This document shows positions 30,001-36,000 of a stretch of 64,000 nt of DNA, piece after piece (the stretch's first letter is position 1; each line of letters opens with the position of its first letter). The position numbers were made by a program. The stretch is taken from the NCBI RefSeq assembly GCF_053078305.1, contig NZ_CP166879.1, one strand, 5' to 3'.

Positions 30001-33000
30001 AGTTGTAAGGTTGTTTTGTGTTTTTATTTTTGGTGCTGGAGGAGATAATATGCTCCTCATGATAAACGATGTGATTTTCAAATAAATAATGCTGGGTATA
30101 ATATTTTCTTTTGAATATTAAAGAGTTTATGAAAAGAAAGTTTTCTGGCTATGTCTCCTTATTCTGATATAACTTCACGTATGGAACCATTTAGCATAAA
30201 AATATTTAATTTTATATGGCCAACAGTTCTTGTTAAAGAATATTAGCTAGTTTTCATTATATTATAAACAAAGAGTTCTTTGCTGTGATGGATTTCACAT
30301 TTTATTGTCTTGTTATGTATTCCTTCTGGTTTGAACAGGGTGCTTCAGGGATTTTTATTACTATTACGCTTTTTTGGAGGTGATCTTTACATAAGTATAT
30401 CTGGAAATGGATATGAAAAATCATTATGTGGTTTTTTACACGGATGTCGGTAGGCTATTCTCGTATTGATAATACCCTGCCCATAAATCAGGGCAGGAAT
30501 AGTATTATTAATTTCGGGAGAAGCTTAAGGTTGCCACATCGACAGTTTCATCACACAGACTCTTGTCCGGAAATACTTTCTTATTTTTGACTTTAGCCAG
30601 CCATTGCCCGACATGAAGGGAAGGTACAGTGATGATACCGTCCTCATTACTTACAAAGGTAAGTTCTGCTTTATGAGCCGAATGTTTATGCTCAGCTGCA
30701 TGGGTATGACGGGATGATTTCAGATAACTGACAGAGTCAAGCTCCAGAGTAGCTCCGGCAAGCGGGGATGTTTTATACAGAACTTTCAGCTTCACATCTT
30801 CACCGAAACGACTGATATCGGATAATGGAATGATTTCAAGCTCATCCCCTGTTGGAGACTGATAGAGTTGTGCTGGCATCTGCTGTTCACCAGGAATAAA
30901 AGATTTTGCATATTTAGTCACAAACTCACAGTATGCCACATCATTTCTGCCCTCCCGACTGACAGGCTTCCATCCTGACGAGGTTCTCGACCAGTATCCC
31001 GGTTTCATTTTCGTTGACAGAACGTAGCTATTACCGTTGCCTGCAGACTCAGTTTTATAGACATAATCCGTGGACGTTGGCTTCAGCGTTATTATCTCTT
31101 TCCCGTTATAAAGCCGGGGATTTTCAAAGAAATTCCTTCTGTCAGGAATTGTGCCCTTTGAGGGGAAATTATGACCATAACCAATCTCTGCGGTAACGTT
31201 GTTCTCTGCCTGTTTACCGGTAATCCAGACATCGTGGGCCAGGGCATGCTCCGATGCTGTCAGACAAAGAGCTAAGATATAGCCTGTATTTTTCATCATG
31301 ATTTATTTCCTGCGAGGTTACCACTGATAACGGGTATAAAGACTGACAGTTCTGCCTGAAAGCGGCACACCTTTGCCATTCATGGCAAGCTTGTTGAAGG
31401 CATTATCCAGAGTCACTGATGCCTCAAAGCCTTTAACACTTACAGGCTTATAAGACAGTGAAAAGGAATGTACGGCATAGCCAGCCTGATGGGGATCGCC
31501 TTTTTTCACATGCGTGGCTGCTGCCGAAAGTTCAGCGCGCCATCCGGCAGAAACTCCTCCATGACCAACAGGTATACTGATGTCACTGATGAGTGTGTCA
31601 GGATTGCCGGAGCCCAGCCATTCCCTGCTACTGGCATCCATACTTTCCGTGCGGTTATAAGAAAGCATCCAGTCAAAATAATCAGACTGGTAATTACCCT
31701 GCATATCCCATCCCCAGATACGGGCCCGGGATACATTATAAGAATAAGAACGCATCCGTTTCATATCCACGCGCGTGGCAATATAGTTTCTGGCATCCGT
31801 TCCGAAATATCCGCCTTTCAACTGCAGCCGATCATTGTCTGTAAGCAGGCCGTCCAGTTGAATACCTGCGCCAATCTCACGGGTGATGTTATTTTCTGGT
31901 TTCAGATTAAGGTTAGGTACCCAGTAATTGGGTTTACCCTTGCGGTAAAAATGTACATCATCCCTGTACATTTCTGCCATTGTGGGGGCACGGAATGCAG
32001 AGGATATGGAGCCGTACATCATCAGCCAGTCTGTCGGTGAGACTGAAATCGCCGCCCTGGGGGACAGGCGTTCGGCTTTCAGTTCTCCGGCTCGGGGATT
32101 GAAGCTCTTGTACCGGTCATAACGGGAACCGACGATAATGTTAACCGGGTTGCTTTTCATTGTCATTTCATCCTGGAAATACAACGATGTAAAGTCAATG
32201 TTTCCTTCCGGATATAGTGTGGCAGAGCCTTCCGGCTTCTGCTGCTGACGGTAATATTCAGCGCCATAACTTAACTGATGGGCTCCCGGAAAAATCAGAG
32301 TATGGCTCCTGTTGACAACATTAACACCGGAGGTTCTGTTGTTTCGCCATTCTGCTGTTTTGTTGTGACCGTTTGTCTTGATAGTGATATCACTGAGATA
32401 TAACGTTGACTTTACATTGATGAGGCTGTTATCCGCAGGGGCGTACTGGTACCAGAACTGCACGTCATTTTGTGCTGTTTTTCTGTCACGCAGGCCGTTG
32501 TCACCATGTGTCAGAGTGGGATTGCCCGGTTCAGTGGTGTTATTCTGGTAGAGACGCAAGCTGGCACCTGCTTTGTTACTGTCTGTTATACTGACAGAGC
32601 CTTTCGCAAACAGGGCTGCAGGTTTTTCCTTGTTAGGTGCACGCTCACCATCACTCTGATAGATATTTCCTCTTTTACGCATAATGACAGAAAGAAGCGC
32701 ATCTGTTTTTCCGGTTTTACCGAACCAGGTGAGCCCCGAGCCTGTGCTGTGGTCACCACTGGCGACATTTCCCCACAGACTTACACCGTTTGTCTCTCCG
32801 GGGGGAAGAAAATCTGCAGCATCGGCAGTTCTGAAGTCCACCACCCCCCCCAGCCCGCCACTGCCGTACAGACTGGAGTTTGGTCCGCGGACAACTTCGA
32901 TGCGTTTGATGAGTGCCGGCTCGAGATAAGTGCCACTGCTTTTTGCCATGTCACTGAGTTGACGGACGCCGTCAACAAGAACAAGTACCCCGCTTTTGTC

Positions 33001-36000
33001 ATAGCCGCGTAGATTAAAGGTCTGCCCATTGGTCCGTCCTGCACCAGTCTGGCTGAGACCCGCAACACCTTTCAGCATACCGGCTGATGTGACCGCATTC
33101 TGACTCCATGGCGTGTCATTCGTGATGACACTGACCATCGACGGCGTTTCAAATACCGTGTTCTGATTTCCTGTCGCGACAACGGTGATTGTATCTTTAG
33201 CCATAGAAGAATGACTTGTCGCTGTCTGTAGCCCCACCGGAAGTATGATTAATGTACAAATGACAGTTCTGATTACGTTCATATACATTCGAAAATATAT
33301 GTCAATACAGCAATGTTATAACATAATATTTTGTTTGTGCAACCACTATTACGCAGTGTTCAGTGCTAATCTGTTAATAGCTATTCTAATACCCAGTCGA
33401 ACCACTAAGAGTGTATATGGTAAGCCTGCCCTTGAGTCACTATTTCCTGACAACTACTGCATCTAAGGTGACGTTACTTGCTGACGTCGATATTCCCTTG
33501 GTGAGAGATAACCTAACGCACTATGCGGATGGTTTTCATTGTAATACCCGATCTCCACTGCAAGATTATGCAATGCCGTTCTTACATTAGATTTCGGCAT
33601 GCACGCGATGTAGTCTTTCTTCATCGTTTTCACGAATCGTTCGTAAGTGATGAGATGATCTTCCCCCGTATTGCAAGAGTACAGCAACTATGATAGGGAC
33701 AGGTTTACTTTCGTATATCCGGTTTGTTCATGAAGTTATTGCTTCTGGCCTTGATGAGACATTCGCGCGCTCCGACCTTATCGCTTACTCGGCCTTACTG
33801 GCCTGGCTCATCTTGCAGGTTTTCGTAACGTCGGTCTGACCTGTTTTTCATCATTCTGCATTCTTTGCAATTTCAGGGTAAGCTTTACTCCTACTGATTT
33901 TACGTAGATTATTGATTTTGTTTTGCTGCGGGAAAATACATCTCATTGCGGGCGATAATTGCCCAGGCGATCCGAAGGAGTTTATTTGCAAGAGCAACAA
34001 CTGCCCGGTTGAAGCCACGCTTTTCCCGAATACAATTAACCCACACACGAAGTGAATCAGTTTTCTCTGAGGCTCTGAATAATACCGCTCTGGCACCCTG
34101 TATCAGCATAGATCTGACATATTGATTATATGAACACATCCCGTTGCAAGGCATCCATTGCCTTGACAGTGACGGGTAGGTTGCAGCTTTATATCCGGCT
34201 TTTTTGCAGCCATGAAGCTGCGAGCCCCTATGTAATTCGCTGACTCACACCTCATTTCTCCAGCGAGCTTTTAGCTCAACACAATATTCAGGTTTAGTGA
34301 GTCCCGGTCTTACCTGTCGTTGTCATCACTATGGCCGCCAGAGTTACCTTTCAGTATTCATCCTTTCATTAAAAGTTAATATTTATCGGTATCAGAGATT
34401 AATATGATCTGATACTGACATGATTCTTGTCGTATTTACTTCCATGAGCTGCTATCGCCCATACTGTTCGTGCCAGTTTGTTTGCCATGGCGACGATTGC
34501 CACGCTGGTTGGACGACGTTTTTTCAGTTCGGTTATCCACGGACCAGGTTCTTTGGGCAGTAATGCTGCCGCCCTTGCGCTATGAATAAACAAGGCTCGC
34601 AGATATGTATTACCACGTTTGCTTATCCCCAGCAGGCGGATTTTCCCTCCTGAGCCAGTCTGTTTGGGCACCAGACCAACATAAGCCGCGAACTCTCGCC
34701 CTGATTTAAACGCTGATGCTTCCCCCATGGTGGCCACCGCTGCCGTTGCAATAAGTGGCCCAACGCCGGGAATATCCAGCAACCGCTTACAGGTTTCATT
34801 CTGTCTCGCCACGCTGGTAAGCTTTTTTTCAATATCCTCTATCAGCGAGTCCAGCTCATTCAGCCGGTTGTACTGGTTTTCCAGCACTGTAATGAGATAC
34901 GGCGGCAGTCTCTCTTTCATCCGCTCCAGTGCTTCAGGGAGCTCTCGCTCCATCGCTGCCCGACCTTTGTGAATGGTTTTACCAAATTCTAGGAGCGTGC
35001 CGTGCAGAGAATTAATCTGCATGGTGCGGAACTTAACCAATTGTCTGCGGGAACGGTGCAAAACCAGCACTGACTGTTGTTCTTCTGTTTTAACCGCGAT
35101 GTCCTTACCTGGCTGCTGAACAGCCATCCAGATAGCCCGGGCATCCATCACATCATTCTTATTTCCCATGACGAATGCCTTAACAAAGTGGGCCTGTAAC
35201 AACCGGACTTTATGCCCCAGCTTTGTCAGTTCACGCACCCAGTGCTGAGAGCCTCTACAGGCCTCCATACCAATCAGGCAGGGTTCCCGATTACAGAAGA
35301 ACATCAGAAAATCCTGACGACGTAGTTGCTTATCAATCACTTCACCTGTGTGCTCGTCGATGAAATGAACCTGAATCAGATGTTTTGCGATATCAACGCC
35401 AACCAGTGTATATTTCATTTGTGGAGTCTCCAGTCTGAGGGAGCTTTATGCATCCTGTATTGGACACTATGATGCCGGAAATCTGCGAGGCTCCACACCT
35501 TCCAGTATTTCCCTTCATCCATCACAGAGCACCTGACTTAATGGGGTGGGATGTGTTCATTACATTTCTCCAAATTTTGTTATACCCAGAAGAACCTGCT
35601 TCCCACCTGTGCTGAACTGTCGGGGAACCAGTCCCAGAGTCGCAGATGCATCTCTTCCTCGTCTAAACTGTTTTCCATCCCCCATCCAGCTTTTTATTGC
35701 CTGACTAACCAGAGGGCTGAATCCAGGAATGGCTAACAAGCGTTTGCACATAGGATCTTGGCGGACATATTTTTCAGTTCAGAATCATACCACTCCAGTT
35801 CATTATCTAGTGTAATCAACCGTATATACTGCCGATGCAATAACGTCCTCATGGTATCAGTGAGTTCGTTTTCCGCATCCTCAAGTAATGCCGGTAATTT
35901 TTGGCGTAATTCTGTTGCGCCTTTACTGAACACAATGCCATATTCAGCAAGAAGTCCACGAACGTGATTTATCAGTTGTGTCCTTTCCATCGAAACCAAC

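Follow-up and report, generated by a model that had tools for sequence, protein, structure and literature searches.

The locus considered here raises the question of what is taken up by a gene pair which at first sight resembles a heme uptake system. It is located in a window of 64,000 nucleotides, the whole stretch of DNA analysed, from contig NZ_CP166879.1 (assembly GCF_053078305.1) and consists of a gene for a TonB-dependent outer-membrane receptor followed by a gene for a DUF4198 protein. A first-pass annotation had taken the pair for a heme/metal uptake locus, possibly preceded by a weakly matching Fur box. The results presented here make it likely that the two genes form an operon which is repressed by Zur, induced by zinc starvation, and serves zinc acquisition rather than heme uptake. 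The identities of the two proteins, the match of an upstream site to known Zur operators, the conservation of this site, and the absence of a Fur box were established computationally. Regulation by Zur is strongly predicted from the sequence of the promoter region, and zinc as the cargo is suggested by the predicted regulation, the nature of the partner protein, and the precedent of other bacteria, with the position of the promoter and the metal ligands being likewise putative.

A predicted Zur operator upstream of the receptor gene

Potential operators were scored by counting the mismatches to consensus sequences, with controls and dinucleotide-preserving shuffles for comparison and with three Zur operators of Escherichia coli K-12 as references (n = 3). 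Compared with the gamma-proteobacterial Zur consensus GAAATGTTATANTATAACATTTC, consisting of the half-sites GAAATGTTATA-N-TATAACATTTC and scored at 22 positions, the predicted operator (Table 1) contains 4 mismatches, which makes it the top match in the entire window (the runner-up shows 7), and its score was reached by only 1 of 5000 shuffles. The validated K-12 operators of znuA/znuC, zinT, and ykgM contain 2, 4, and 6 mismatches, respectively, in the same scan, placing the box of the window inside the validated range (2-6). The site also deviates at only 3 of 20 positions from the structure-based motif TGWNAYRWTATAWYRTNWCA (PMC4219657) and retains the central TATA intact, the feature by which Gilston et al. 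(2014; PMC4219657) tell Zur operators apart from those of Fur. Its core, ATGTTATAACAT, differs by a single G-to-A (purine-to-purine) change in the left half-site from the 16-base core of the ykgM operator, TGTTATGTTATAACAT, which recurs identically in the boxes from Salmonella, Providencia, and a 99.5% identical copy of the locus in Shiga toxin-producing E. coli (STEC). The ykgM operator is at the top of a palindrome-based operator hierarchy, which according to its authors follows the general pattern of the measured affinities (PMC4219657). At position 33327, the box of the window reads TATTAT, and the STEC, Salmonella, and Providencia copies read TGTTAT. The 18-bp purine/pyrimidine skeleton (RNNNY) of Zur sites is matched without any mismatch at 33307..33324, but is of low information, as indicated by 456 perfect matches in the window.

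The predicted operator would cover the candidate -10 hexamer and the expected start of transcription, which corresponds to the layout of a repressor site. The hexamer TTGCAY is kept in the E. coli and Klebsiella copies at a distance of 16-18 nt from TATAAC. An alternative promoter with a perfect TTGACA at 33300..33305 was set aside, because the start of transcription would fall at or after the start codon.

No comparable site was found for Fur. The segment 33312..33330, for which a resemblance to the Fur consensus had been proposed, indeed carries the string AATGTTATAACATAATATT at exactly this position, but shows 11-12 mismatches in its own register to the 19-bp consensus GATAATGATAATCATTATC. 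Within 200 nt upstream of the receptor gene, no Fur box stands out above the background, since the best match (8 of 19 positions mismatched) was equalled or beaten by 3581 of 5000 shuffles (72%), and about 750 position-strand combinations of the window match the 19-bp consensus with 8 or fewer mismatches. The 7-1-7 form of the consensus was scanned as well and gave a best match with 5 mismatches. Thus, the Fur scan suggested in the first-pass annotation, run here as a consensus scan, yielded no significant match, which on the computational side speaks against its proposal of iron control. As a positive control, the hemP-hemR-hemS-hemT-hemU-hemV operon of Citrobacter, which contains the nearest heme-type paralog of the receptor, was found to carry a Fur box with 2 mismatches, and the same scan revealed no match to the Zur consensus better than 9 mismatches in this operon. 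In six other lineages with the gene pair, no Fur box was found either, none of the matches being better than 7 of 19 mismatches. A Fur box at this locus was rejected on the basis of the consensus scans, the shuffles, and the hemP control. A scan for MntR operators gave nothing convincing. A near-perfect palindrome of the Fur 7-1-7 type, TGAAAATGATTTTCA, is present elsewhere in the window on the start codon at 11989, at the locus for a 1614-amino-acid Ig-like repeat protein, and is probably due to chance because it lies inside a coding start.

Conservation of the predicted operator across lineages

The comparison set was made up of the contigs carrying diverged copies of the receptor and the DUF4198 protein, namely an E. 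coli variant, a Klebsiella plasmid, Salmonella enterica, Providencia, and one unassigned lineage, with the S. enterica copy matched to subsp. diarizonae by a genome scan. When genome contigs were scanned with the DUF4198 alignment, the only matches came from Salmonella diarizonae and from distant metagenome-assembled genomes of deltaproteobacteria, without any new enterobacterial lineage. The order of receptor and DUF4198 genes is kept in all compared lineages despite unrelated surroundings, with identities of the receptors down to 48%. A Zur box with 2-6 mismatches is present in six of the seven further copies, 38-81 nt before the start codon. An unbiased search of the 150 nt upstream identified TTATGTTATAACATT as the best-conserved 15-mer of all lineages (seven with the gene pair, the IncF plasmid copy included), with 7 summed mismatches vs. 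a median of 34, and the conservation of the box spans 15-23 bp even in lineages whose flanks are unalignable. The remaining copy, from the Klebsiella plasmid, contains a degenerate Zur box with 7 mismatches, and zinc control may be altered or lost in this case. In the same region (approximately 3960..4015 of contig L006), the box retains its right half-site, TATAACATTAC, and is followed downstream by a second AAAATGTTAT in inverted order.

These data also bear on the possibility that the palindrome is a mere AT-rich promoter element or a chance occurrence, and that the operon is expressed constitutively or controlled otherwise. The region is indeed AT-rich (62%), and the box includes the -10 hexamer, which would be conserved anyway. 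However, the score is hardly ever attained by composition-matched shuffles, the conserved stretch extends far beyond a hexamer where the flanks have diverged, and the core is nearly that of the ykgM operator, which together render this explanation highly unlikely.

The receptor

The receptor contains a signal peptide and the TonB box DTITVVA, and the hallmarks of a heme receptor noted in the first-pass annotation are evident. It belongs to the heme/hemoglobin receptor subfamily (TIGR01785, 425 bits vs. a cut-off of 316.85), also exceeds the cut-off of TIGR01786, aligns to the structures of ChuA and ShuA with E values of about 1e-168, and keeps the loop-7 motif, consisting of FRAP (amino acids 432-435), the invariant His446, and NLNL (amino acids 459-462; NPNL in hemR-type receptors). 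All of these features would fit a Fur-repressed heme/hemoglobin uptake locus induced by iron starvation, with the DUF4198 protein as a periplasmic accessory, and iron limitation is known to induce DUF4198 genes in certain other bacteria (PMC7970244, PMC3751524). However, the DUF4198-linked receptors constitute a separate clade, 43-49% identical to the hemR-type receptors, in which the plug histidine corresponding to His86 of ShuA is replaced by Lys or Ile throughout (seven of seven receptors; Lys116 in that of the window), whereas it is kept in all three hemR-type sequences compared. Heme extraction by ShuA requires His86 and His420 together (PMC8977872). Moreover, genes for heme utilisation and heme ATP-binding cassette (ABC) transporters (hemP/S/T/U/V, chuS/T/U/V) are absent from the window and from the orthologous contexts, and no heme oxygenase gene is located nearby, while heme genes are present beside the Citrobacter paralog. 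Considering in addition that a conserved Zur box sits in the candidate promoter and that a Fur box is missing here and in the six other lineages as opposed to the hemP control, a Fur-controlled heme uptake locus appears quite improbable. From the first-pass proposal of a heme/metal uptake locus, the theme of metal uptake is retained, whereas iron control is unsupported and the role in heme uptake is weakened by the replaced plug histidine and the missing heme genes.

With its retained heme-type scaffold, the receptor could still accommodate a ligand that is chelated or similar to a porphyrin. In an alternative model, the locus would be controlled by Zur, but the receptor would transport a porphyrin or a compound resembling heme, serving as an additional path for heme at low zinc or for the uptake of zinc-loaded ligands, rather than mediating ion uptake in the style of ZnuD. 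The scaffold and the invariant loop-7 histidine agree with this assumption, and the 33 clade-specific substitutions of the receptor revealed no His/Asp-rich zinc-binding loop or cluster. The ZnuD protein of Neisseria meningitidis is itself similar to heme receptors. On the other hand, the receptor has only one heme-ligating histidine instead of two, neither a periplasmic heme-binding protein nor a heme ABC transporter is encoded, and the family of the partner protein binds metal ions (PMC12663993, PMC12537917), which makes this alternative unlikely. A more far-reaching version, to which we attach little credence, would be that a heme-receptor scaffold has been re-tooled to import a zinc-loaded porphyrin (Zn-protoporphyrin IX) or another host zinc complex, from which the DUF4198 protein takes the metal; the receptor would bind this ligand with its single remaining axial histidine, the plug histidine being replaced. 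If true, such a route would be undescribed in any bacterium and would be carried on plasmids of incompatibility group F (IncF) in pandemic E. coli lineages. Membership in the ZnuD family was considered as well and rejected, since the receptor scores 44 bits with NF038289 vs. a cut-off of 950 and aligns to the structure 4RDR with the plug only (E 1.8e-4).

The DUF4198 protein

The signal peptide of the DUF4198 protein is predicted to be cleaved at ALA|HDVW as read from the sequence, leaving His22 as predicted N-terminus of the mature protein. His22, the histidine of the GYGH motif (His43), and Cys124/Cys249 are invariant in the enterobacterial alignment, and a His-rich loop, SSRHTHAAEHKHSAHK (amino acids ~196-211), contains six histidines within 16 residues in the copy of the window. 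The first characterised DUF4198 protein is Zcp (NGO1049) of Neisseria gonorrhoeae, which is regulated by Zur, binds zinc in the periplasm as a dimer, and contains the triad H29/H31/H142 (cluster 1) as zinc ligands (PMC12663993). The protein aligns to the Zcp structure 9MHI over the full length (E 1.2e-24 for the single sequence; 7e-39 for a profile), with Cys124/Cys249 corresponding to the disulfide pair C127/C250. The triad histidines, which were located via the 3A-mutant chain 9MHK, align to Q/E/E.

The N-terminal histidine also resembles the nickel site of IsDUF4198 from Ideonella sakaiensis, which binds Ni2+ with a dissociation constant of 18 nM via its N-terminal histidine and His18, and binds zinc too (PMC12537917). 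The gene pair might therefore be involved in nickel or cobalt acquisition, with a NikK-like DUF4198 protein carrying an N-terminal nickel site and being fed by the receptor, as DUF4198 genes are often located near genes for TonB-dependent receptors and NikR (PMC12537917), and His22 and GYGH43 are invariant. Yet a NikR operator was not found (best match with 5 of 12 mismatches), no nik or cbi genes are located nearby, and the conserved operator is of the Zur type. The similarity to Zcp is also much stronger than that to the IsDUF4198 structure 9GCB, which is marginal (E 0.05-0.2) and confined to an alignment of residues ~83-186 in the middle of the protein, so that an equivalence of His22 and His43 to His1 and His18 is conjectural. 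Nickel or cobalt as the substrate is thus very improbable.

Proposed mechanism and opposing observations

According to our model, zinc-loaded Zur would occupy the predicted operator under zinc sufficiency and, since this site overlaps the candidate -10 hexamer as well as the expected point of transcription initiation, would block RNA polymerase. When zinc is scarce, Zur would leave the operator, allowing the transcription of both genes. The ChuA-family receptor would then import zinc as free ion, chelate, or host-derived complex across the outer membrane, energised by TonB-ExbBD. In the periplasm, the DUF4198 protein may capture the metal, with His22, His43 of the GYGH motif, and the His-rich loop as likely ligands, and may keep the zinc available for ZnuABC or periplasmic zinc enzymes in a similar way as Zcp of N. 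gonorrhoeae. Zur-regulated TonB-dependent zinc importers are known from Neisseria, Pseudomonas, Acinetobacter, and Caulobacter (PMC6103462, PMC4176598).

Several of the observations reported above weigh against zinc acquisition under Zur control. At the level of regulation, these are the degenerate box of the Klebsiella plasmid copy, the G-to-A change separating the box of the window from the ykgM core, and the fact that the TTGCAC-16-TATAAC arrangement was read by eye and not listed by a simple promoter scan. At the level of the proteins, the receptor is a member of the heme/hemoglobin subfamily with a preserved loop-7 motif, shows no His/Asp-rich loop, and falls far outside the ZnuD family, while the DUF4198 protein lacks the zinc triad of Zcp and carries an N-terminal histidine compatible with another metal.

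Comparison with known systems

The known Zur regulon of E. coli K-12 comprises znuABC, zinT, ykgM-ykgO, and pliG (PMC6103462). The predicted operator shares with the K-12 operators the organization as a 23-bp pseudo-palindrome with a central TATA, the core close to that of ykgM, and, if the candidate promoter is correct, the location over the promoter (PMC4219657). It differs from them in its downstream genes, which code for a DUF4198 protein and an outer-membrane receptor and are both foreign to the K-12 regulon, and in being a predicted site of an accessory, mobile operon found on IncF plasmids and STEC islands. With Zcp (PMC12663993; PDB 9MHI-9MHO), the DUF4198 protein has in common the Pfam family, full-length homology, a signal peptide, the disulfide cysteines, and a Zur box (here a predicted one) upstream of the transcription unit. 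However, zcp is monocistronic, whereas the DUF4198 gene of the window is in second position behind the receptor gene, and its product carries the GYGH motif and an internal His-rich loop instead of the triad. IsDUF4198 (NikK-like; PDB 9GCB; PMC12537917) likewise presents a histidine as first mature residue (predicted in the case of the window), and proteins of its type are often encoded beside TonB-dependent receptors, but its link to nickel and NikR was not found at the locus of the window.

The receptor would resemble ZnuD/TdfJ of Neisseria, ZnuD of Pseudomonas and Acinetobacter, and ZnuK/L/M of Caulobacter in being encoded behind a Zur operator overlapping the -10 hexamer, as predicted here, and in the predicted import of zinc across the outer membrane during zinc starvation (PMC6103462, PMC4176598). 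It is homologous to ZnuD only in the generic plug domain and lacks an obvious His-rich extracellular loop. Its similarity to ChuA/ShuA/HemR (PDB 9DHE, 3FHH) is much more extensive, with ~44% identity over the full length, a similar size, membership in TIGR01785, and loop 7 of the FRAP...His...NPNL type, but it differs from these proteins by its separate clade, the missing plug His86, the replacement of the Fur box by a predicted Zur box, and the pairing with a DUF4198 gene instead of hemS/chuS and hemTUV.

Each element of the locus is of a known kind (Zur regulon, TonB-dependent metal receptors, Zcp-like proteins). New is the combination of a ChuA-clade receptor without the plug histidine and a Zcp homolog without the Zcp triad, jointly controlled by one (predicted) Zur box in a highly mobile E. 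coli module. No published description of this E. coli operon was found in the searchable literature, which is incomplete, so that a prior description is possible.

Organization and mobility of the module

The coordinates of the locus are listed in Table 1. The first-pass annotation was right about the DUF4198 gene behind the receptor gene and the insertion sequence (IS) remnants on the upstream side. The two genes are probably co-transcribed, because no minus-strand promoter or terminator was predicted between them in a promoter and terminator scan. An alternative start of the receptor gene is possible at an ATG at 33282. The GC-rich hairpin behind the DUF4198 gene, at which the module ends, is a possible weak terminator, although it lacks a T-run and was missed by the terminator scan. 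The counterpart of the IS3-family fragment in the matching STEC record is annotated as "integrase core domain-containing protein, incomplete".

Table 1. Coordinates of the receptor-DUF4198 locus and its boundaries within the window.
Feature	Position	Strand	Details
Hairpin CCTGCCC-N8-GGGCAGG	30476..30497	-	GC-rich; 11 nt past the DUF4198 stop codon; read from the sequence
Conserved mobile module	30488..33399	-	2.9 kb; promoter region, Zur box, and both genes; ~95% identity with IncF plasmids
DUF4198 gene	30508..31299	-	263 amino acids; intact; PF10670, E 6e-26
Intergenic spacer	31300..31317	-	18 nt; contains the ribosome-binding site AGGAAA of the DUF4198 gene
TonB-dependent receptor gene	31318..33288	-	656 amino acids; intact; plug and barrel domains
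Predicted Zur operator	33310..33332		23 bp; coding strand AAAATATTATGTTATAACATTGC; encloses 33312..33330
Candidate -10 hexamer TATAAC	33315..33320	-	Within the Zur box; 16-nt spacer to TTGCAC
Candidate -35 hexamer TTGCAC	33337..33342	-	Read by eye
IS3-family transposase, C-terminal fragment	33463..33687	-	rve_3, E 5e-11; upstream boundary of the module
IS110-family transposase	34399..35418		Upstream of the receptor gene; IS110-family genes and fragments in this region

The limits of the module were derived from BLAST alignments (query positions 102..3013 of 33500..30400). Homology to plasmids is restricted to the promoter region and both genes, beginning about 110 nt upstream of the ATG and ending at about 30488 in the IncF copy. 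A 3.1-kb region shares 99.5% identity with islands on STEC chromosomes, and the ~95% identical module occurs on hundreds of plasmids, most of which are conjugative (one multireplicon IncF plasmid was examined). In total, 1190 of 5426 complete E. coli genomes contain the module, with 819 plasmid and 425 chromosomal locations. Roughly two of every three E. coli copies are therefore plasmid-borne, and the remainder resides in islands such as that of the window, which also carries subAB. A plasmid database contained 762 matching records, 727 of them from Escherichia and 30 from Klebsiella.

In one E. coli lineage (L009, 4009..6792), the receptor is 96% identical to that of the window and the DUF4198 protein only 74-75%, which implies a recombination breakpoint inside this operon. 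In the E. coli variant lineage (L009/L011), the operon is directly followed by an ibrA/ibrB-like gene pair on the same strand (6889..8687 in L009). The window contains two sets of IbrA-like (3'-phosphoadenosine-5'-phosphosulfate reductase/DUF3440) and IbrB-like genes, at 1414..2837 and at 25848..27131 and 29289..29918, with the two IbrB-like copies being 58% identical. Only the IbrB-like gene still adjoins the operon of the window, with a gap of 589 bp, and the IbrA-like gene is inverted. The linkage of ibrA/ibrB-like genes to the receptor-DUF4198 operon is thus a recurrent one.

Other genes in the window

An intact subtilase cytotoxin operon is located on the minus strand at 49544..51026, comprising subA (49983..51026; 2IY9, E 6e-216) and subB (49544..49996; 4BWG_B, E 4e-74). 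The genes beside it (51693..54241 and 57319..58503) code for an OMP_b-brl/OmpA-like barrel protein, an EptA-like sulfatase, an IS3 transposase, and a P4-type integrase, a layout which we take to be that of the subtilase-encoding island of STEC strains negative for the locus of enterocyte effacement (LEE). Past the integrase gene, a ParA-like ATPase and a DnaB-like helicase are encoded at 58810..63101, where a further integrative element, rather than the chromosomal dnaB region, appears to begin. The segment 42001..47745 codes for a serine-protease autotransporter of 1363 amino acids (Peptidase_S6 and autotransporter beta-domain), preceded by the gene for a regulator of the AraC family.

Genes for type I secretion (OEP, ABC, HlyD) and the following gene for the Ig-like repeat protein mentioned above are found at 6976..16832; a related STEC record contains a 13-kb gene annotated as "calcium-binding protein" at the apparently corresponding position of the latter. 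Two genes for YadA-like trimeric autotransporter adhesins (17228..18970 and 21756..23021) are separated by the gene for an IS66-family transposase (20067..21680), and an additional YadA-head fragment is present at 5342..5920.

Implications

E. coli is not known to possess a zinc importer dedicated to the outer membrane. If the proposed function is correct, the module would fill this gap, albeit only for the strains carrying it, and would represent a candidate fitness factor against the withholding of zinc by the host, e.g., by calprotectin. The receptor would be a surface-exposed antigen, whose present annotation as hemoglobin/transferrin/lactoferrin receptor may be misleading, and it would provide a natural test of a change of substrate in the heme-receptor fold. 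The DUF4198 protein would extend the metal-buffering Zcp/DUF4198 family to the Enterobacteriaceae, with a different set of ligands.

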